Below, piece by piece: positions 7,888-51,374 of a stretch of DNA of 64,000 bases; position 1 is the stretch's first letter; every line of letters begins with the position of its first letter. A program made the translations under genes and the position numbers. Origin of the DNA: Candidatus Scatomorpha merdigallinarum (GTDB taxonomy: Bacteria; Bacillota; Clostridia; Oscillospirales; Oscillospiraceae); NCBI GenBank assembly GCA_018710885.1, contig DVJA01000058.1, positions 7,922 through 71,921 on the forward strand, in the 5' to 3' direction. The notes beneath the pieces were generated by a model. It was not told the DNA's origin, did no database searches, and was given only the letters and a program-made list of their open reading frames with translations.

Positions 7888-8498
7888 GATATAAGCACCT
7901 CTGTAACAAGATTTATTCTGTCTGCCGCCCTGCATTTTTCCGCAGTTAGTATGGCATCGACTTCCCCAGCGGCGGCGTCCGGGTCGTCGTTTACAACAAT
8001 ATATCCGTATTTACCGGCCTCAGCGCATTCACGCTTGGCCTGGAGCAGACGTTCGCGTATTTTTTCGTCTGAATCAGTATTTCTGTGCCTTAGCCGGCGC
8101 TCGAGCTCTTCGCCCGACGGCGGCAATATGAAAACAGTTACCGCATCAGGGCAGTTGCGGACTATCTGGCTGGCGCCCTGTACCTCGATGTCGAGTATAA
8201 CGCTTTTGCCTTCCATCTGTCTCTGTTCGACATATCCACGCGGCGTACCATAACGGTTTCCTACGTACTCAGCGCACTCGAGGAGATAGCCGCCCTCGGC
8301 CAACTCCTGGAAATGTTGCGGCGATACGAAGAAATAATCCTTCCCGTCCACCTCGCCGGGACGCATAGGGCGGGTTGTAACTGACACGGAAAAACAGACA
8401 TCGTCCCGTTTCTCCATCAATTTGCCAATAACAGTGCTCTTCCCCGCTCCTGACGGGCCGGATATCACCAGCAATTTTCCCTTTTCAAGAGAGCTCAT
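7884..8498 (-). CDS. gmk: guanylate kinase
   Basis: P-loop GPSGAGKST and [17 protein letters not shown]. Start refined to MSSLEKGK. Confidence 0.9.
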
Positions 8499-42899: not shown

Positions 42900-43877
42900 T
42901 CATGTGCAGGAGGCAAACACTTCGTCGAATATGGCTCCCGGCATGTAGGCGCAGACTCTCACTGCGCTGCCGCCGTACATGACGCAGCCGTTTTCAAAGA
43001 GTCGCACGGGAACGGTCGTGCCGTCTGCCAACTCGAAGTAGAGATGCACCTCGGCGTACTCATAGTCGAAAATGTCGCCGTTTTCGCTCCACGCGCTCCA
43101 CTCCTGCATAGGCGAGACCATGAGCAGGGAGACAAAGGCTTCCAGGCTCTCCGGGTCGAGCTCGTGGCGGTTATCTATATTCTCCTCCCAGTCAGCGTCG
43201 AGGATGTAGTACGCGCCCACGTAGTTTTCGACATGCAGACAGGTTTCAAATAGGTCAGCGCCGCTGTAGAGCGTCATGTCGCTCAGACAGTCGTAGAACT
43301 CTATCAGCCCGTCCGGTCCATCCATGCACAGACGGAAGTTGGTGTCGTAGCCTTTGACACTGTACACGTCGCCGCCGATGCTGGACGCGCCCTCGACGTA
43401 CTCGTCCGCGCCGGACCACTCGTCTATATCTCCCTTGACCGTACAGACATATCCTTCCCTCAACGAAGGGTCGGCGTACTGCCCGGTCTGGACATACATG
43501 CGGCCGTTGTATATGAAAAAGGCCATCATATCCGCTGCAACCCCCGGCTCCGGCGCCTCCGGCATTGGGTCTGGCGAGATGTACACACTGTCCCAAGGAG
43601 GTGCCGGCACCATCACACCGTTGTCCGGCGACACAGACCCTGGTGCAGCCGATGTGTCAACCGCCGGGTTATCGCCGGCCACCGGCTTTATACCCTTCCA
43701 CGGCTGGGCAATACCCAGCACCAGTGCTGTGCAGGCTGCCATGACCGCCACAGCGCCGATAATGCGCCGGCGGCGTGTTTTGCGCTTGCTGCCAGATGTT
43801 GCAGATTCGAGTCTTGCATCCTCTATAGCTTCGTCCGATATGCCGCCGATTGCTTTGAATACATCCCAGTTCGTCAT
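42900..43877 (-). CDS. single-pass membrane protein, putative anti-sigma factor (by position only)
   Basis: ATGA overlap with the ECF sigma stop. About 35-aa cytoplasmic N-terminus, RRRR-TM (IIGAVAVMAACTALVLGIA), about 265-aa extracytoplasmic domain with no motif I recognise. No HxxxCxxC ZAS motif. Confidence 0.4.
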   Translation of the reverse strand: MTNWDVFKAIGGISDEAIEDARLESATSGSKRKTRRRRIIGAVAVMAACTALVLGIAQPWKGIKPVAGDNPAVDTSAAPGSVSPDNGVMVPAPPWDSVYISPDPMPEAPEPGVAADMMAFFIYNGRMYVQTGQYADPSLREGYVCTVKGDIDEWSGADEYVEGASSIGGDVYSVKGYDTNFRLCMDGPDGLIEFYDCLSDMTLYSGADLFETCLHVENYVGAYYILDADWEENIDNRHELDPESLEAFVSLLMVSPMQEWSAWSENGDIFDYEYAEVHLYFELADGTTVPVRLFENGCVMYGGSAVRVCAYMPGAIFDEVFASCT

Positions 43878-44431
43878 ATTAGCTCCTCGCTTTCGAGATA
43901 AGCGCGCAATTTTCTGCGCGTCCTGTGGAGCAGCGAGCGCACGGCTTGTTCTGTCATCCCGTTTTGCCTGGCTATATCCGGCACGGTATCACAGTCGAAA
44001 CAGCGCTGCACGAACACACGCCTTGTCCTGGCATCCTGCTCAAGCACGAACGAATCAACAGCCCGTGCCAGTTCATCGGCGTCCAGGCGCTCCCCCACGC
44101 TTCCAGGCGCCGGTACGCACTCCGAGAGTTCCTCCAGGACTGCCTCCACCTCCCCGCAGCCGCGTTTGGCGGCAGTGTTGTGTTCGAGCCTACCCAGGGC
44201 AGTGTTTCTTGCGCAGCGCGCCAGCCAGGCTCCGAGCGATCTCGGCTTTTCCGGCGGTATGGCTTTCCAGGCGGCCAGGTACACATCCGCTTCGCACTCC
44301 TCTGCGTCGCGTACGGATCCGGTTATGTTCAGCGCTACCCGGCGCAGATATGAGCCGTATCTGGCCCGGCACTCGTCCAGGGCACGCTCTGAACGCCGGT
44401 TGAAAAGCTCGATGATTTCCCTGTCGTCCAT
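43874..44431 (-). CDS. ECF-type RNA polymerase sigma-70 factor
   Basis: Start refined to MDDREIIELF (AAGGAG 7 nt upstream). Region 2 (YLAAWKAI) and region 4 HTH (IPDIARQNGMTEQAVRSLLHRTRRKL). Confidence 0.85.
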   Translation of the reverse strand: MDDREIIELFNRRSERALDECRARYGSYLRRVALNITGSVRDAEECEADVYLAAWKAIPPEKPRSLGAWLARCARNTALGRLEHNTAAKRGCGEVEAVLEELSECVPAPGSVGERLDADELARAVDSFVLEQDARTRRVFVQRCFDCDTVPDIARQNGMTEQAVRSLLHRTRRKLRAYLESEELI

Positions 44432-44676
44432 GAGCACGCTCCTTTCCTCTTGAGGTCCCTCATCTATAAAGTAAGGTTTTTTATCCATGTGTTGCGATCA
44501 AAGCTTCAACTTCAGAATCTTTTTTAACATCTGAGGCGCGCCAGGCACGCATTAAGTTTGCTGCTGAGATTTGCTTCCGGTTGCGTAACCTCAGTGTAAT
44601 TCTGTTACCGGGTCAAAAGCTGTCACAAGGACATATACTGTTCTCGGGGCATCGCCCCAGAGGGAGGAACACACAA

Positions 44677-46059
44677 ATGGGTGTTACTAATTCCAACAAG
44701 CTTATAAATCTCAACAGTATAGACTGTGACGGATCGCTGCGTGTAACGCTTGCGCTCACCGCAGCGCCCGATATTATAACTAATCCAACCGATATCGTCC
44801 TCGTGCTCGACCGCTCCGGCAGCATGACGGGCACGCCGCTTTCCAACATGAAAACCGGCGCCAAGACCTTTATCGACATCATCGCCGAGTCCACCGGTGG
44901 CACCGCCAGCGGGCAGATAGGCTCCGGCAGCCGTATAGGCATAGTCAGTTTTGCCGATACGGCAATGGACAATACGCAGCTCATCACTTCCGTCGATGCG
45001 CTTAAAAACGCCGTTGACGCCCTGGTAGCGCTCGGCAACACCAATCACGCCGACGCCTTCACCAAGGCGCTCGGTCTATTTGACCCCAACTCAAGCAACG
45101 CAAGAGTAATTGTAATGTTCACCGACGGTAAGACCACGGCCGGAGGCCCGCCTGCTCCGATTGCCGCGCAGGCTAAAGCCCAGGGCGTCATAATCTACTG
45201 CATCGGCCTAATCGGCTCTGACGGCATTGACGTCCCCACACTTGAAGAGTGGGCCAGCGACCCGTCAGCCACGCACGTGGCCGTCACCCCGGATTCTGCC
45301 GAGCTTGAAGAGCTGTTCAAAGAACTGGCTGAAAACATCTCCAAAACCGGTGCCACCAACATCGTGATAGACGAAAAGGTGGCCTCCGACTTCGTGATAA
45401 CCAGTATTGTTACTCCCGACCGTGGCACTGCCACCATGACGGACAGCCGCACGCTGCGCTGGACGATACCTGAACTCGGCGTATCTGCCAGCGAAAGCGC
45501 GCTGCTTGAGTTCTATATCCGGCACACGTCTCAGAACCCCGGCACGAAACTGGTAAACGAGTCAATCACCTACTCTGACAGCGAGGGCAATGTTGTGGTC
45601 TTCCCCGCTCCCACTGTCGAAGTGAACTGCGGCATTGTCGTGAACCCGGAAGAGTGCCCTGTGCCAGTTGACTTGGCGGTCTCCGGCTGTTCCGACTCTG
45701 TGCTCGTGGACCTTGGCAATGTCGAACTAGAATCGCTCGGACGCATCATTCAAGCCGATGTGACAATTAAGAACGTCTGCCCCGGCAAGCGCGTGGCCCT
45801 GGCTGCAATACTGACTGAGGTTGACGGTGAGGGCATGGAATACCAGCGCGGCATGAAAACTGTAGCCATCCCTGCGCACACCCAGCCCTCCTGCCGTGAC
45901 GTGCTGGTCAGGTGCATCAAATTCGTGGTCCCGGAAAGCCTGGCTGAAAACGGCGAGCCTGTCGGCGCCATGTGCGGCGACCGCCAGTTTAAGATGCGTT
46001 TTATCGCCCACTATATCGACACCGATTACCGCTGCTGCGAGGCAGAAGTAACCCTGTAA
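44677..46059 (+). CDS. von Willebrand factor A (MIDAS) domain protein with beta-rich middle domain and Cys-rich C-terminus; no signal peptide
   Basis: Start refined to ATG 44677 (AGGGAGG at 44661-44667). MIDAS DRSGSMTG, GNTN, MFTDGK. About 10 Cys in the last 150 aa, ending YRCCEAEVTL. Confidence 0.8.
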   Translation: MGVTNSNKLINLNSIDCDGSLRVTLALTAAPDIITNPTDIVLVLDRSGSMTGTPLSNMKTGAKTFIDIIAESTGGTASGQIGSGSRIGIVSFADTAMDNTQLITSVDALKNAVDALVALGNTNHADAFTKALGLFDPNSSNARVIVMFTDGKTTAGGPPAPIAAQAKAQGVIIYCIGLIGSDGIDVPTLEEWASDPSATHVAVTPDSAELEELFKELAENISKTGATNIVIDEKVASDFVITSIVTPDRGTATMTDSRTLRWTIPELGVSASESALLEFYIRHTSQNPGTKLVNESITYSDSEGNVVVFPAPTVEVNCGIVVNPEECPVPVDLAVSGCSDSVLVDLGNVELESLGRIIQADVTIKNVCPGKRVALAAILTEVDGEGMEYQRGMKTVAIPAHTQPSCRDVLVRCIKFVVPESLAENGEPVGAMCGDRQFKMRFIAHYIDTDYRCCEAEVTL

Positions 46060-46079: not shown

Positions 46080-46103
46080 GAGGCCCGCCGTACGGCGGGC
46101 CTC
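46080..46103. terminator. shared hairpin between the convergent VWA gene and EF-Tu-like gene
   Basis: gaggcccgccg / cggcgggcctc, GC-rich 11-bp inverted repeat. Poor U-tracts on both sides. Confidence 0.55.
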
Positions 46104-46122: not shown

Positions 46123-46647
46123 TTACCACGGAAGATTTGCCACTATGTCCTTTAGAAGCTCTTCCAGGGCCGAGATGCCGGCTTCAATCTGCCCATAGAC
46201 GGCGGCACGTGCGGAGCCGGCTATAAATTTGAGGTTATCGTATGGCACATCGCTATTATAGAGCTGACGGCAGGTATCAATCTGCACCAGCTCAATAAGT
46301 TCGTCGTCGTAGTCGATGAGGTCGCATTTGTTGAAAAATACACCCTTAAACTTCAAATCCTTGCCCGGCAGGAGCTCGTCGAGGTCCATCGGCCCGTCGT
46401 CGGCCGCCACGACCAGATACCACATGTCTGCTTCCGGAACGGCAACGTCAAAATCTGAGAAGTGTGTCTCCAGTATGTAGAGTTCTATGCCCTTCATCCG
46501 GATGCAGCAGCCGCCCGGCACCGCGCCGCCCGCGCCACCTCTGGCGGCGAACTCGGACAGCAGGTACAGAATTTCAGACATACCCACACCCTCTGTGCCG
46601 AGAAGTCTGATAATTGCCCGCCTTGATGCATTGATACCAGCACTCAT
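46123..46647 (-). CDS. EF-Tu G-domain-like protein with degenerate P-loop and switch II (putative pseudo-GTPase)
   Basis: By-eye alignment to EF-Tu domain I: LVVAADDGPM, VFFNKCDLIDYDDELIELVQ, FIAGSARAA. The P-loop equivalent is GTEGVGMS (Lys to Met). No DxxGH. Start taken at the second ATG (GGAG 8 nt upstream). Confidence 0.6.
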   Translation of the reverse strand: MSAGINASRRAIIRLLGTEGVGMSEILYLLSEFAARGGAGGAVPGGCCIRMKGIELYILETHFSDFDVAVPEADMWYLVVAADDGPMDLDELLPGKDLKFKGVFFNKCDLIDYDDELIELVQIDTCRQLYNSDVPYDNLKFIAGSARAAVYGQIEAGISALEELLKDIVANLPW

Positions 46648-46665
46648 GTTCATTACTCCTGTCCT

Positions 46666-47130
46666 TTAGTTTTTGCCGTGCGCGGCGAAGTACTCCTTGA
46701 GCACTTCCAGCGCCGCTTCACGGCATGCGCCTAGGGTTACAGAGATGTTTGCGCCTGAACTTTCAAATACAATACGGCTGCACTCACTGCCCTGTACTCC
46801 GAGCAGCGCGCAGAGGTCAATATCGCTCGCCCCGTAGACGAGCCGCCCGAGTTTGGCCCAGACCATAGCGCCGGAACACATGAAACAGGGCTCGCAGCTC
46901 GTATAGAGCGTGTACTCGCTCAAATCGGTAATGCCTGTCTCACGGGTAAAGCGGCGTATGAGGCCGATTTCCGCATGCTCGGTGTGGTCATGAGCCGTAT
47001 ATATCTGGTTTTCATTGCGGCAAACTATTTTGCCGTCTTTCACCAGCACGGCGCCGAAGGGCTCGTTGCCGTGGAGAACAGCTTCGCGCGAGAGGCGCAC
47101 CGCCTCGCGCATGAAAACTTCATCGCTCAA
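46666..47130 (-). CDS. CDA-fold nucleoside/nucleotide deaminase (TadA/GuaD-like)
   Basis: 154 aa. Zinc motifs HAEIGLI and CEPCFMCSGA. Confidence 0.8.
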   Translation of the reverse strand: MSDEVFMREAVRLSREAVLHGNEPFGAVLVKDGKIVCRNENQIYTAHDHTEHAEIGLIRRFTRETGITDLSEYTLYTSCEPCFMCSGAMVWAKLGRLVYGASDIDLCALLGVQGSECSRIVFESSGANISVTLGACREAALEVLKEYFAAHGKN

Positions 47131-47786
47131 CGGAACACCCCCATGTCTGCGTCGTAGATCTCGACCCGCCTGAACTTGGCAAAGTCCGGCTTGAGCTCCG
47201 GACTAAGCTGCTCCAGCGCATGTATTAAGAGGTCCGGGTTTACTGTGGGCTCCTGCGCGGATATTACGCACTTGATGCGGAGCCCGTCCTGCGTGGGTTC
47301 GCACTCAAAATCCCTTACGTTTCCGGCGAGCTCCAACACTCCCTCGCCCCTCTTAGTGCGGCGTTTGACCGGTATGCTCTCACGCCTGAAAAAGGCCAGC
47401 AGCGGCTGGACTATATTCTCTCCGCTGACATGGTCATAGTCGAAACGCCCCTCAATGCGCAGCCACTTGATACCGCTCGCCTTGCGCTCGGGCTCGTAGC
47501 ACTCCAGGAAGCGTATACCCTCGGGCGAGGTGGAGTTGAGCTTTTCCGGCAGGGCCGCTATATCTATATCCCGCTTCACGCGGAAGTCCATGAGCTCGCA
47601 CAGGCTCTCTGTCCCCACTGAAAGGGGCAGGCAGATAGATATGAGCGCGTGCGGGTTAAAACCCTCGGAATATCTGAGCGGGGTCTCGGCGCGCAGGAAG
47701 ATGCGCTGCACCACACGCATGAGGTCGAGGTGGCTTATGTACGCGGCCTTGCCGGTCTTTTCAAAACGCAAACGCAGTTTATCCAT
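47127..47786 (-). CDS. TIGR03936-family (DUF2344) radical SAM-associated protein
   Basis: 219 aa. MDKLRLRFEKTGKAAYISHLDLMRV..R..LP...S.GFNPH is characteristic. Overlaps the upstream radical SAM gene by 8 nt. Confidence 0.75.
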   Translation of the reverse strand: MDKLRLRFEKTGKAAYISHLDLMRVVQRIFLRAETPLRYSEGFNPHALISICLPLSVGTESLCELMDFRVKRDIDIAALPEKLNSTSPEGIRFLECYEPERKASGIKWLRIEGRFDYDHVSGENIVQPLLAFFRRESIPVKRRTKRGEGVLELAGNVRDFECEPTQDGLRIKCVISAQEPTVNPDLLIHALEQLSPELKPDFAKFRRVEIYDADMGVFR

Positions 47787-49617
47787 CGCACTTCACCCCC
47801 TTGGGAAGTAGGCTCTGCGCCCCGCAGGCAGAGCAGGCCACGCGGCAGTCGGGGCTGAGCTCGGCGGCATACGCCCTGTGCTTTTCGCGCAGCAGCAGGC
47901 TTGTCCTCACACCCATGTCTATGCGGCACCAAGGTAGGACCTCGTCCTCTGAGCGCTCGCGCGTGGCGTAGAAGTCCGGGTCAACGCCACATTCGTCAAA
48001 GGCATCCATCCAACGCTTGAAGTTGAAGTAGTCACTCCATGCCTCCATGCGTGCGCCGCGCCGCCAGGCGGCCTCTATCGCGTCACCGACACGCCTGTCA
48101 CCGCGGCTGAGCACGGCTTCTATAAAGCTCGTATCCGGGTCATGCCAGTTATATGTGACATTCTTGGCGGTAATGGAGTCGCGTAGCAGGTTTACGCGGC
48201 GCTTATACTCGCTGCGCGTAACCTGTGCCTCCCACTGGAACGGGCTGTGCGGCTTTGGCACGAAGCAGCTTGTGGACACGGTTATGCGCACGCCGCGCTG
48301 CTTGTTGGGCGAGCTCTCGCGCCAGACGTGGAGCACCTGGGCGGCGAGGTCGGCTATGCCCACGACGTCCTCGTCCGTCTCCGTGGGCAGGCCCAGCATG
48401 AAATAGAGCTTAATGCCGTTCCAGCCACCCTCAAAGGCTATGCGGCAGGTATTCAGCAGGTCATCCTCGGTGACGTTCTTGTTTATGACGTCGCGCAGAC
48501 GCTGTGTTCCCGCTTCAGGCGCGAAGGTCAGGCCGCCGCGGCGCACCTTTTGCAGGCGGCTCATGAGTTCCATGGAGAAGTTGTCAGCTCTCAGGCTGGG
48601 TAGAGAGAGCGAGACGTTGCGGGGCTCGCACCAGTCAAGGAGTCCGTCACAGGCCTCCGGCAAGTGCCGGTAGTCGCTGCTGGATAGGCTCAGCAGCGTC
48701 GCCTCCTGCGAGCCCGTGTTCCTGATAGACTCTATGCCCTGGCGTATGACAGTCTCCGGCTTCTTCGCGCGTATGGGGCGGTACACGTACCCCGCCTGGC
48801 AGAAGCGGCAGCCGCGCACGCAGCCTCGGAAGAGCTCCACATTCACGCGGTCGTGGACTATCTCCGTGCTGGGTACGATGGGGTTTGTGGGGTAATACAC
48901 GCTGTCCAGGTCGGATATAATGCGCTTCGTGACCTTTTCCGGCGCGCCGGGCAGGCAGCGCATCTCGGCGAGGGTGCCGTCTGCGTTGTAGACCGGCTCG
49001 TAGAGGCTTGGCACGTAGACGCCCTGTATCTTTGCGGCTTCGAGCAGAAAGTCGTGCTTGCTCCAGCCCTCGTCGCGGGCCCTCTGGAACAGGCGCAAGA
49101 CCTCAACGTCCACTTCCTCGCCTTCGCCGAGGACCATCAGGTCCATGAACGGCGCCATCGGCTCGGGGTTGCAGCAGCTTGTGCCCCCCGCGAACACCAG
49201 CGGCGTCAGGCCGGGTCTGTCCGCGCTTCTGAGCGGGATTCCCGCCATGTCGAGCATGTCCAGCACGGTACAGTAGGCCATTTCGTAGCCTATGGAGAAG
49301 CCAAGCACGTCGAACTCGCTCACCGGGTCTCCGCTTTCAAGCGCATATAGGAGCATTTTGTTCTCGCGCATGGCCTCGGCCATGTCGCCCCAGGGCGCAA
49401 ACACACGTTCGCACCAGATGTCCGGCTCGTTGTTGATAACTCCGTAGAGTATGCGCATGCCGAGGTTGGACATGCCTATTTCGTACACGTCCGGGAAGCA
49501 GAAGGCCATGCGCAGCTTGACTTCACTCTTGTCCTTGATTATTTCATTGAGCTCACCGCCTGTGTATCTGGCGGGCTTTTGCACATTAGGGAGTATTCTT
49601 TCTAAGCGTTTGTCCAT
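47779..49617 (-). CDS. TIGR03960-family B12-binding-domain radical SAM protein
   Basis: Start refined to MDKRLERIL. KPARYTGGELN N-terminus. Radical SAM cluster RGCVRGCRFCQAG. Confidence 0.85.
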   Translation of the reverse strand: MDKRLERILPNVQKPARYTGGELNEIIKDKSEVKLRMAFCFPDVYEIGMSNLGMRILYGVINNEPDIWCERVFAPWGDMAEAMRENKMLLYALESGDPVSEFDVLGFSIGYEMAYCTVLDMLDMAGIPLRSADRPGLTPLVFAGGTSCCNPEPMAPFMDLMVLGEGEEVDVEVLRLFQRARDEGWSKHDFLLEAAKIQGVYVPSLYEPVYNADGTLAEMRCLPGAPEKVTKRIISDLDSVYYPTNPIVPSTEIVHDRVNVELFRGCVRGCRFCQAGYVYRPIRAKKPETVIRQGIESIRNTGSQEATLLSLSSSDYRHLPEACDGLLDWCEPRNVSLSLPSLRADNFSMELMSRLQKVRRGGLTFAPEAGTQRLRDVINKNVTEDDLLNTCRIAFEGGWNGIKLYFMLGLPTETDEDVVGIADLAAQVLHVWRESSPNKQRGVRITVSTSCFVPKPHSPFQWEAQVTRSEYKRRVNLLRDSITAKNVTYNWHDPDTSFIEAVLSRGDRRVGDAIEAAWRRGARMEAWSDYFNFKRWMDAFDECGVDPDFYATRERSEDEVLPWCRIDMGVRTSLLLREKHRAYAAELSPDCRVACSACGAQSLLPKGVKCDG

Positions 49618-49671
49618 GTAATGACCCCGTTTCAAAAGTTACGCGGTCAGTATATACTATCCTGCCCAAAT

Positions 49672-50229
49672 TTACAAGTGCGCTTGTTGTACCATGAGCG
49701 CTCCACCGGCTATTAAAAGCGCGATTCCTCCCCCGCTGGCAGCCAGTATGGCGCCAAAGAGCAGCACCAGTGCAGCCGTCACCAGCGAGCAGAGCAGCGT
49801 TGCCCGGCGGCCAACGGCACACTCGAGCGCCCGGCCTCCGTCCAGCGGCAACGCCGGAAGCAGGTTGAAACCGCTGAGCACGAGACTCATACCGGCTGAC
49901 AGCAAAAGCATATCCAGTCCAATGAAGGAACCCAAGCCCGCCGCAAGGGCGGCCCATATGAGCCCCGCTGCCGGTCCTGAAAGGGCGCACACCAGCTCGG
50001 ACAGGCTGCCCGCCTGGGCGTCGCGCTCTATCACAGCACCCGTTATGTTCGCTGTCAGCGATTTTACTCTCCCGCCCGTCAGCCTGATGGCAACGAGGTG
50101 GCCCAGCTCGTGCGTCACTGCAGCCAGCAGCAGTGCAGCCAGCTCGTCCGTGTCCAGCAAGAAGTAGAGCGCCGCGAGCAGCACGGCGCCCCCGGCGCTT
50201 ATTTTAACTTTGAATCTTCTGTGCATCAT
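49672..50229 (-). CDS. short M50 site-2 protease (SpoIVFB-like, no CBS domain)
   Basis: Start refined to MMHRRFKV, overlapping the upstream M23 stop. HELGH and NLLPALPLDGGR motifs. About 185 aa. Confidence 0.7.
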   Translation of the reverse strand: MMHRRFKVKISAGGAVLLAALYFLLDTDELAALLLAAVTHELGHLVAIRLTGGRVKSLTANITGAVIERDAQAGSLSELVCALSGPAAGLIWAALAAGLGSFIGLDMLLLSAGMSLVLSGFNLLPALPLDGGRALECAVGRRATLLCSLVTAALVLLFGAILAASGGGIALLIAGGALMVQQAHL

Positions 50230-51110
50230 GAGAGGTAAAACTCTGGGTTGTAGTAAACCCCGTCGCAGGTGAGTTCCAGGTGCAGGTGCGGCCCGGTGAC
50301 ATTGCCCGTGGCGCCGACCAGACCTATGCACTCCCCGGCCGTCACGGTGTCCCCTCCGGTCACATACACGGCAGAGCAGTGCGCATAAAGCGTGCGCCAG
50401 CCTCCGGCGTGCTGGACTATTATATAGTTGCCAAAGCCAGCGTCCCAGCCGACCATCCCCACAGTCCCGTCCGCAAAAGCCAGAATCTGCGTGCCGGTCC
50501 AGGCCGCAAAATCAGTGCCATAGTGAAAGAGCACCTCGTTTCGCAGCGGATGCATCCTATAGCCGAAGCCACTGCTCGTCATATCACTGACCGGGCTCAC
50601 ATAGTCAAAGGGCAGCTCAGGATAACTGTAGCTCACATTCGACGGCACCGCGTAGTCAGAGAACTGGGCCTGGGCCTCCAAAAAAGACGTGACAGCCTCC
50701 GGCACCGGCTCTTCGGTCGGCTCCGGAGTCGGTTCAGGCGTCGGCTCTGGTGTGGGCTCAGGCGGCGTTGGCTCGGCCGTGTTCTCCGGCTCAGACTTCG
50801 GCAGCAGGGCGGCCTGTTCCTCCAGCAAGTCGTTAATCGTGGTCGGGGAGTACTGTACGGGCTTGGTGTCACCCTCGTCATACCGTCCGGTGAGACGCAG
50901 GAACGCCTCCCTCACCTCTTCGTCGCCTGCCAGAGTTTCGCCGAGGTCCTGGAACACCGCCATATAGTCCGCATCGCTGGATATCACCTCGCGTAGCTGT
51001 GCCCGCGCCTGCTCCGTCTGCTCCGGGAACAGCAGCTTGATGGCAGTCAGCAATATGAACACTGCGGCGGCACAGAGAACTTTTAAGTTTTTCGTATGTT
51101 CGGCCTTCAT
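50226..51110 (-). CDS. membrane-anchored M23/LytM metallopeptidase (SpoIVFA position)
   Basis: Start refined to ATG 51110 (MKAEHTKNLKVL + TM). The track ORF extension runs across the tRNA-Pro gene. HxxxD (HYGTD) and HxH (HLHLE) intact. (EPTP)n linker. Confidence 0.75.
   Translation of the reverse strand: MKAEHTKNLKVLCAAAVFILLTAIKLLFPEQTEQARAQLREVISSDADYMAVFQDLGETLAGDEEVREAFLRLTGRYDEGDTKPVQYSPTTINDLLEEQAALLPKSEPENTAEPTPPEPTPEPTPEPTPEPTEEPVPEAVTSFLEAQAQFSDYAVPSNVSYSYPELPFDYVSPVSDMTSSGFGYRMHPLRNEVLFHYGTDFAAWTGTQILAFADGTVGMVGWDAGFGNYIIVQHAGGWRTLYAHCSAVYVTGGDTVTAGECIGLVGATGNVTGPHLHLELTCDGVYYNPEFYLS
50700..50780 (-). repeat. in-frame tandem 12-nt repeats encoding (EPTP)n linker of the M23 peptidase
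   Basis: Peptide AEPTPPEPTPEPTPEPTPEPTEEPVPE. The DNA shows reiterated ggctc(a/c/t)gg(c/t/a)g(t/g) units. Confidence 0.7.
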
Positions 51111-51177
51111 ATCAAGAGTATATTTTGCCCGGGACGGGCTTATACATACGGCCGCACGAATCTTTTTAAATAACTGC

Positions 51178-51206
51178 TTGACAAGCGCCCTCTGAGCCCT
51201 TATAAT
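51178..51206 (+). promoter_or_regulatory. consensus sigma-A promoter of tRNA-Pro
   Basis: TTGACA (51178-51183), 17-nt spacer, TATAAT (51201-51206), 13 nt before the tRNA 5' end. Confidence 0.8.
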
Positions 51207-51219
51207 GATAAGGCCGTTT

Positions 51220-51295
51220 CGGGGTGTAGCGCAGATGGTAGCGCGCATGGTTCGGGACCATGAGGCCGCGAGTTCAAGTCTCGCCACTCCGACCA
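51220..51295 (+). tRNA. tRNA-Pro (anticodon CGG)
   Basis: Manual cloverleaf: acceptor CGGGGTG/CACTCCG, D stem GCGC/GCGC, anticodon stem CATGG/CCATG with loop TTCGGGA, T stem GCGAG/CTCGC with loop TTCAAGT, encoded CCA. 76 nt. Confidence 0.9.
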
Positions 51296-51297
51296 CA

Positions 51298-51335
51298 TCC
51301 GTCAAAGTCAAATGACTTTGACGGATTTTTATTTT
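51298..51335 (+). terminator. intrinsic terminator of tRNA-Pro
   Basis: ccgtcaaagtc / gactttgacgg stem followed by ATTTTTATTTT. Confidence 0.8.
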
Positions 51336-51374
51336 CAAGGCAAATGGTCAGGCGCAGAGACATATAAATCACCA

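Follow-up and report, generated by a model that had tools for sequence, protein, structure and literature searches.

A stand-alone, pared-down EF-Tu G domain of gut Oscillospiraceae as a candidate pseudoGTPase

The 64,000-nucleotide stretch of the Candidatus Scatomorpha merdigallinarum genome analysed here (contig DVJA01000058.1, positions 7,922 to 71,921; hereafter the window) carries a minus-strand gene whose product resembles the G domain (domain I) of elongation factor EF-Tu. We refer to the gene and its product as mini-G, and list its motifs, signals and upstream neighbours in Table 1. A preliminary description of the locus had given the product as 174-176 amino acids (aa), and both values are found. 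The open reading frame (ORF 46123..46653, minus strand) encodes 176 aa from a first in-frame ATG at 46653 and 174 aa from a second at 46647. The second ATG is the likely start, because AGGAG lies 8 nucleotides (nt) upstream of it and the same-species database orthologues are 174 aa long. In every orthologous locus checked, a Shine-Dalgarno (SD) site stands 6-9 nt before the start. The motifs quoted in that description (GTEGVGMS, LETHFSDF, LVVAADDGPM, FFNKCDLIDYDDELIELVQID and AGSA) are all in the sequence, and the window protein is identical to the 174-aa variant P0217, which occurs on 88 contigs. The GC-rich hairpin that follows the gene is likely a bidirectional terminator with a weak U tract. 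No tuf gene and no EF-Tu-like sequence was found elsewhere in the window.

Table 1. Positions in the window of the mini-G gene, its motifs and signals, and the genes upstream of it
Feature	Position	Strand	Remarks
TIGR03960 B12-binding radical SAM gene	47779..49635	minus	899 bits against a cut-off of 462; first gene of the trio
TIGR03936 (DUF2344) radical-SAM-associated gene	47127..47786	minus	169 bits against a cut-off of 71.9; immediate upstream neighbour of mini-G in Scatomorpha-type lineages
TadA-like nucleoside deaminase	46666..47130	minus	NCBIfam 94 bits against an equivalog cut-off of 150; overlaps the TIGR03936 gene by 4 nt
Shine-Dalgarno AGGAG	46656..46660	minus	8 nt before ATG 46647; directly after the deaminase stop TAA (46666-46668)
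Mini EF-Tu G-domain coding sequence (mini-G)	46123..46647	minus	174 aa plus stop; from the ORF list, SD spacing and EF-Tu G-domain homology
Degenerate P-loop GTEGVGMS, residues 17-24	46576..46599	minus	Met23 codon ATG (46579-46581) in the place of Lys
ETHFSDF, residues 60-66	46450..46470	minus	End of strand β3 and short linker; EF-Tu has HVDCPGHADYV (switch II, His84)
G4 motif NKCD, residues 106-109	46321..46332	minus	K107 and D109 kept in 16/16 family members
Helix-D equivalent, residues 112-131 (DYDDELIELVQID...)	46255..46314	minus	Among the stretches most like EF-Tu
G5 motif G-S-A, residues 144-146	46210..46218	minus	G144 in 16/16 and S145 in 14/16 family members
GC-rich hairpin GAGGCCCGCCGTACGGCGGGCCTC	46080..46103		Between the convergent mini-G and VWA genes

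Sequence and structure comparisons both relate mini-G to EF-Tu, well beyond what chance would give. In a phmmer search of the PDB, residues 74-166 aligned with EF-Tu 97-194 (E 2e-10), and the significant matches were EF-Tu chains or EF-Tu-containing fusion constructs with few exceptions, namely one IF-2 (E 0.08) and two designed SAKe proteins whose matches had no qualifying stretch. When a profile built from 11 family members was compared by hhalign with E. coli EF-Tu 1-205, the probability was 98.8% and E 1.1e-16, over query residues 8-171 and EF-Tu residues 10-201. The AlphaFold2 (AF2) model from a 34-row multiple sequence alignment (MSA) has a predicted local distance difference test score (pLDDT) of 90.2 and a predicted template-modelling score (pTM) of 0.87, and a Foldseek search of the PDB with this model returned only EF-Tu among its top 50 matches, at query TM values of 0.72-0.79. 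A 5-sequence MSA of family members only yielded the same secondary-structure order at pLDDT 55, and this model was unusable for fold search. As modelled, the protein has a G-domain fold closest to EF-Tu among GTPases, and these comparisons bear out its earlier description as an EF-Tu domain-I paralogue. The curated models match below threshold: the NCBIfam EF-Tu models reach 31-38 bits (E 1e-9) against cut-offs of 449-522 (for one model, 38 against 479), and Pfam GTP_EFTU 13.4 bits against 26.5. Standard annotation therefore fails to recognise the protein as a GTPase.

The losses relative to EF-Tu are concentrated in the switch regions. About 11 residues of the switch-I effector loop are deleted in the hhalign alignment, and a second deletion of about 11 residues removes HVDCPGHADYV, and with it DxxG, the catalytic His and the first part of the switch-II helix. 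Helix C is cut to about four residues in the AF2 model, and the protein stops at residue 174, corresponding to about EF-Tu residue 201, after which comes the terminator hairpin, so that domains II and III, the aminoacyl-tRNA-binding β-barrels of EF-Tu (PF03144 and PF03143), are absent. Neither the alignment nor a family motif table shows DxxG, the catalytic His or a counterpart of HVDCPGHADYV in any family member, and the position equivalent to the Mg-coordinating Thr61 of switch I (RGITI in EF-Tu) is variable (C, A, R, V, E, G or S). The G4 and G5 motifs are retained, the G4 Asn being replaced by Ser or Ala in some members. The P-loop glycines G17 and G22 are invariant in the 16 members compared, and together with the NKxD Lys and Asp and the G5 Gly-Ser they are the most conserved positions of the family. 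Mean identity to EF-Tu is 48% for strand β5 with NKxD, 38% for helix D, 38% for β4 and 37% for β6 with GSA, and 9-29% for most other segments; the exposed helix-D positions equivalent to EF-Tu E144, E147 and E152 remain acidic throughout the family. In addition, the family has conserved residues that EF-Tu lacks (G20, G38, C47, K52, E60, W76, Y77 and G102), and three of them, E60 (15/16), C47 (14/16) and K52 (14/16), occupy positions that flank the nucleotide site in EF-Tu. Conservation is distributed over both halves of the protein. The conserved residues not found in EF-Tu therefore indicate that the N-terminal half has gained constraints of its own instead of decaying. Judged by its motifs, every member lacks the residues that EF-Tu-type hydrolysis of GTP, or a change of conformation between GTP and GDP states, would require. 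The preliminary description had read the window protein in the same way, with NKxD and SAx retained, switch I shortened and both the DCPGH/switch-II region and domains II/III missing, and the loss of DCPGH now proves to be shared by the whole family. It had also pointed out that orthologues combining an intact P-loop with DxxG would mark the window copy as a decaying pseudogene; intact P-loops do occur, and DxxG is missing in every member.

The P-loop Lys differs from the other lost elements in being variable even within the species. Codon 23 is ATG in the window and AAA in locus L024, from a strain of the same species. Within the same cluster at ≥90% identity, P0220, P0227 and P0229 read GTEGVGKS, and P0217 and eight other variants read GTEGVGMS. 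The M allele is the commonest, with P0217 on 88 contigs versus 1-2 contigs per K variant, and it occurs in at least two haplotypes, those of P0217 and P0222. Elsewhere in the family, Lys is kept in P0002-P0006, P0158, P0014 and P0016/P0159/P0160, and is replaced by Ile in P0162, L008 and P0012/P0156 and by Gln in P0009 and P0010/P0157. Roughly half of the lineages thus retain GxxxxGK[ST], and the Ser/Thr after the Lys position is kept family-wide, save in one member with Arg. On a neighbour-joining tree rooted with EF-Tu, the Lys was lost independently at least 3-4 times (to M, I or Q). The Lys-to-Met replacement reported earlier is therefore real in the window and is a trait of neither the family nor the species; we rejected K23M as a family trait, since it is a strain-level polymorphism in Ca. 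Scatomorpha merdigallinarum. Because it has been lost repeatedly and is K/M polymorphic within a species, the Lys itself is dispensable, and these patterns support the view that triphosphate chemistry is dispensable in the family. The K23M change also creates an in-frame ATG with GAGG (46590-46593) 8 nt upstream, and the NCBI record HIS45220.1 (P0216, Ca. Scatomorpha merdigallinarum) starts at Met23, giving a product of 152 aa without strand β1 and the P-loop. An internal translation start at Met23 is possible.

By sequence, mini-G belongs to a small unnamed family descended from EF-Tu. A word-indexed search found 8 clusters, and a hidden Markov model (HMM) scan of 1.84 billion representatives together with a second profile search found about 18 clusters at 90% identity. 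Family clusters score at least 122 bits and are separated by a gap from genuine EF-Tu, which scores at most 66 bits. For none of the members is a Pfam domain precomputed, none reaches the Pfam or NCBIfam thresholds, and where the source gives a name, it is "hypothetical protein" (HIS45220.1; Ca. S. stercoravium HIT30107.1; Pseudoflavonifractor capillosus WP_204899982.1). The known members come from gut Oscillospiraceae, namely Ca. Scatomorpha spp., P. capillosus and uncultured relatives. A pattern-based scan of one genome per species matched 3 of 185,579, all of them Oscillospiraceae metagenome-assembled genomes; this count is a lower bound, P. capillosus not matching the patterns used. A JGI metagenome scan added a single locus, which belongs to the species of P0004. 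In a published survey of translational GTPases, only one clearly distinct EF-Tu-like subfamily was described, actEF-Tu (PMC4342817), and a term search of the text of that survey returned no mention of truncated or G-domain-only EF-Tu forms. The earlier impression that no described family covers the protein is upheld by its scores below the Pfam and NCBIfam thresholds, by the hypothetical status of its members and by its absence from this survey.

Outside the Scatomorpha-type lineages, mini-G is found with various extensions and partners. In P0010/P0157, a stand-alone gene encodes an N-terminal extension beginning MGFFGRKAKK, and in P0016/P0159/P0261 (P. capillosus), where the gene lies 318 nt after guaA, the extension begins MSLFKRKSKV. 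The extensions of P0010/P0157 and of P0016/P0159/P0160/P0261 comprise 25-30 residues (e.g. L022 7001-7100 and L019 7001-7100), and both sequences presumably look like the N-terminus of FtsY, which is basic, amphipathic and membrane-targeting. A KE-rich coiled coil is present in P0014, whose gene follows that of a Sel1-repeat protein (L014 2-2111, two adjacent genes). In the low-GC subfamily, P0019 (L025 166-1752) is a 528-aa fusion of that Sel1-repeat protein's domains with mini-G, which by its architecture is a Rosetta-stone type link of mini-G, the KE-rich coiled coil and the Sel1 repeats. Upstream of the P0010-subfamily genes, by about 530 nt, lie tRNA-Thr(UGU) and tRNA-Tyr(GUA) (L022 6283-6472, L011 5555-5744), with terminator-like hairpins between the tRNA pair and mini-G. 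The thrU-tyrU pair heads the classical tufB operon in the same order (PMC6134099). This linkage could be a vestige of descent from a second tuf copy, or simply a coincidence. The stand-alone subfamily genes were also considered for an upstream riboswitch or leader, an idea we rejected because Rfam models matched only the two tRNAs in L022 and gave no credible match in L019. The profile search also returned truncated or duplicated EF-Tu G domains from outside the family: P0040 (170 aa) is a free-standing G domain whose switch I is short and whose GHGKT and DCPG are intact, and in P0020 (548 aa) an EF-Tu-like protein is preceded by a degenerate extra G domain. Reduced G domains of EF-Tu may thus have arisen more than once.

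The family shows the marks of purifying selection. Intact ORFs of 167-195 aa are found across 28-99% identity. Among orthologues of 60-72% identity, the ratio of nonsynonymous to synonymous substitutions (dN/dS) by the Nei-Gojobori method (NG86) is 0.10-0.23, with dS saturated. The comparison of the window with L024, of the same species, is unsaturated and gives dS 0.073, dN 0.014 and a ratio of 0.19; for the flanking genes in the same pair, dN/dS is 0.12 (deaminase) and 0.24 (VWA gene). The only frameshifted member, P0006 (L005, tig00021304, 8001-8489), lies on a long-read contig in which TetR and ABC genes are split as well, and the frameshift is probably a sequencing error, not decay. The other truncated versions are a probable chimera (P0013) and partial products of short contigs (P0007, P0008, P0011, P0161 and P0162). 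The check proposed in the preliminary description, for conserved orthologues under purifying selection, thus turned out positive, with about 18 clusters and dN/dS of about 0.1-0.25. These data argue that the ORF is a genuine gene under purifying selection, encoding a stand-alone, pared-down EF-Tu G domain; we rejected a pseudogene or spurious ORF on the conserved intact ORFs, the SD sites and dN/dS.

The minus-strand order in the window is M23 peptidase, M50-like protein, TIGR03960 B12-binding radical-SAM protein, TIGR03936 protein, TadA-like deaminase and mini-G. The trio of TIGR03960, TIGR03936 and mini-G genes, all on one strand, is shared by the window and six other distinct lineages of Scatomorpha type (13 loci): L001/L002/L004/L005/L007/L018 (Ca. 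Scatomorpha gallistercoris-type), L006, L008 (mini-G 39% identical), L009 (P0009), L010 (P0012) and L016/L017. The intergenic gaps of the trio are 15-66 nt, without U-tract terminators. Mini-G is the next gene after the pair in these Scatomorpha-type loci, and three mini-G subfamilies are unlinked to it. The deaminase gene, which sits between the TIGR03936 and mini-G genes, is present in L024 and had no tblastn match in loci L001-L017. Downstream of mini-G, the gene varies by locus and encodes VWA/CsxB, an ECF-transporter S component or an ECF sigma factor. Since the deaminase is missing and the downstream gene is variable across loci, the stable link is to the radical-SAM pair and not to the deaminase. 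We rejected the deaminase, which the preliminary description had proposed for pull-downs, as a functional partner, since outside the window it was seen in L024 and in none of the loci L001-L017; the conserved neighbours are TIGR03960 and TIGR03936. Our literature search on the function of DUF2344, TIGR03936 and TIGR03960 found nothing. No mobile elements were seen around the mini-G gene.

Some further features of the neighbourhood were noted. The convergent gene at 44581-46059 (plus strand) encodes a VWA-domain protein; its orthologues match Pfam VWA and CsxB, and it is missing in L008, L010 and L016. It is adjoined by genes for an ECF sigma factor (43874-44488, minus) and a probable anti-sigma protein (42900-43877, minus). 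On the other side, tRNA-Pro(CGG) (51220-51295, plus) has a perfect TTGACA-17-TATAAT promoter at 51178-51206, and the listed 370-aa M23-peptidase ORF (50226-51338, minus) runs antisense over this tRNA. Because the listed ORF crosses the tRNA gene, the true start of the M23 ORF must lie further downstream.

We favour the interpretation that mini-G is a non-catalytic, pseudoGTPase-like binding module, and give it an even chance of being right. In such a module, a guanine nucleotide or nucleoside would probably be docked as a structural or sensed ligand, without turnover. A ligand-holding module is favoured over a nucleotide-free scaffold because no part of the protein is better conserved than the guanine pocket, while triphosphate handling is dispensable. 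In the Scatomorpha clade, the gene layout predicts that mini-G closes the TIGR03960/TIGR03936 radical-SAM operon and is co-transcribed with it, and for no candidate partner other than this pair is there any evidence. In the other subfamilies, the basic N-terminal peptides, the coiled coils and the fusion with or adjacency to Sel1 repeats would be the behaviour expected of an adaptor domain. A fuller version of the proposal holds that mini-G is the first example of a bacterial family of EF-Tu-derived pseudoGTPases, a guanine-pocket-only adaptor, nucleotide-sensing or purely structural, that is a dedicated radical-SAM subunit or regulator in Scatomorpha and is tethered elsewhere through coiled-coil, Sel1 or membrane-targeting extensions; this we put forward tentatively, as a rather unlikely possibility. 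More speculative is the idea of a G3E-type metallochaperone, suggested by Cys, His and Glu residues near the P-loop and by the B12-binding radical-SAM neighbour; no CxCC-type motif was found in the mini-G protein.

Several observations weigh against the binding-module interpretation. The case for guanine-nucleotide binding is drawn from motif conservation, and the 34-row MSA behind the AF2 model contained EF-Tu fragments, which makes the structural match less than fully independent of EF-Tu. Because the loci with this synteny come from close relatives (83-94% aa identity for the radical-SAM protein), the adjacency could be inherited instead of selected. TIGR03960 and TIGR03936 occur very widely without a mini-G gene, and three mini-G subfamilies (P0010/P0157, P0016/P0159/P0261 and P0014/P0019) lie in unrelated contexts. 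Finally, mini-G is the fastest-evolving gene of its locus, with 61-63% aa identity versus 72-94% for its neighbours in the same genome pairs (radical-SAM protein 90-94%, TIGR03936 72-83%, VWA protein 82-86%, ECF sigma factor 73%). Such fast divergence fits an adaptor and also fits weak constraint.

Among the alternatives, mini-G might still be a working guanine-nucleotide switch or a slow GTPase that relies on non-canonical residues. E60-T61-H62, C47 and K52, near the former γ-phosphate site, would be the candidate residues, and the Lys-less alleles would then be weaker or differently regulated. The conservation of E60, C47 and K52, the intact P-loops of about half of the lineages with their nearly universal Ser/Thr, and G4 and G5 motifs that are invariant or nearly so are what such an enzyme would show; set against them are the deletion of both switch regions, the absence of DxxG and a P-loop Lys that has been replaced several times, in part by hydrophobic Met or Ile. 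In addition, K and M alleles coexist in one species at a dN/dS of 0.19, with M the commoner. We consider a working switch or slow GTPase unlikely.

The window copy could instead be a drifting K23M loss-of-function allele of a nucleotide-binding protein, or its internal ATG could now also yield the 152-aa product without a P-loop. The K alleles of the same species fit a recent loss of function. However, M is by far the commonest allele of the cluster and is carried on more than one haplotype, and other lineages have fixed Ile or Gln at this position while keeping the rest of the protein. The internal start is consistent with the GAGG ahead of Met23 and with the annotation of HIS45220.1 from that residue, but the 22 codons upstream of Met23 are intact and are preceded by a better SD sequence. 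Either version seems to us quite improbable.

According to a third proposal, mini-G would be an EF-Tu mimic or decoy. Its helix-D face would be shown to the L7/L12 C-terminal domain (CTD), to EF-Ts, or to a kinase, toxin or phage factor, and the protein would thus tune translation or protect EF-Tu. The G domains of translational GTPases contact the L12 CTD early in docking (PMC3505967). The stretch from G4 through helix D is among the segments most like EF-Tu and keeps the three acidic positions, which agrees with this proposal. The rapid divergence of mini-G would be unexpected for the mimic of a highly conserved protein, though an arms race would fit it. In EF-Tu/EF-Ts structures, helices B and C carry much of the EF-Ts interface. 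As mini-G lacks helix B (switch II) and keeps only about four residues of helix C, an EF-Tu-like complex with EF-Ts is argued against. No link to toxin, defence or phage genes emerged: PADLOC and PHROGs returned nothing for the window protein and only weak generic P-loop matches for two divergent members, and BFVD returned only generic giant-virus GTPases and no phage counterpart. The absence of mobile elements around the gene also speaks against a decoy, which we judge decidedly unlikely. A defence-system or phage origin of mini-G was likewise rejected on these searches. The least probable alternative by far, a decaying and functionless remnant of a partial tuf duplication, would account for the fast evolution, the eroded catalytic motifs, the narrow taxonomic range and the tRNA-Thr-tRNA-Tyr pair upstream of the P0010 subfamily, but it conflicts with conserved-length intact ORFs in about 18 clusters down to 28% identity, with the confinement of disrupted versions to L005, a chimera and short-contig partials, with low dN/dS even in the unsaturated pair, with conserved SD sites and with conserved residues that EF-Tu does not have (W76, Y77, C47, E60 and G38).

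The binding-module interpretation can be set beside known systems. Mini-G has the same β/α order and fold as the part of EF-Tu to which it aligns, and the two share the P-loop glycines, DDGP, NKCD, helix D (DDELIELV in mini-G, DEELLELV in EF-Tu) and GSA. Unlike EF-Tu, mini-G has no domains II and III, has lost about 11 residues each at switch I and at DCPGH, has a short helix C and a P-loop Lys that varies between K, M, I and Q, and scores far below the cut-offs of TIGR00485 and PF00009. Because domains II/III and the switch and catalytic parts are missing, it should be unable to bind aminoacyl-tRNA or to hydrolyse GTP in the manner of EF-Tu. The pseudoGTPase concept describes proteins that keep the G-domain fold, have lost catalytic motifs and serve as protein-interaction modules (PMC12490416, PMC5593906). 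The eukaryotic examples, including the AAGAB psGD, the pG1/pG2 domains of p190RhoGAP and degenerate septins, resemble mini-G in having a G-domain fold with the catalytic motifs lost, and also in use as a protein-interaction module, which for mini-G we infer. Mini-G differs from them in being bacterial and stand-alone and in coming from a translational GTPase, not from the Ras-like or septin lineages. It departs from class i pseudoGTPases in its G4 and G5 motifs, which are invariant or close to it, and nucleotide or base binding may therefore persist. Like actEF-Tu and the Streptomyces EF-Tu3-type proteins, it is a duplicate of EF-Tu, restricted to one lineage, that has escaped gene conversion and become divergent. 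Our literature search for bacterial EF-Tu-derived pseudoGTPases found none.

EF-Tu is among the most conserved and most studied of proteins. The family described here is rare and taxonomically narrow, which limits its significance. One member comes from a cultured organism (P. capillosus, WP_204899982.1), so that experiments are feasible. If the binding-module interpretation is true, mini-G would be a rare bacterial pseudoGTPase and a natural experiment on the uses of a G domain without GTPase chemistry. If, in addition, it is a partner of TIGR03960 and TIGR03936, it would provide a first handle on a widespread, uncharacterised radical-SAM system.

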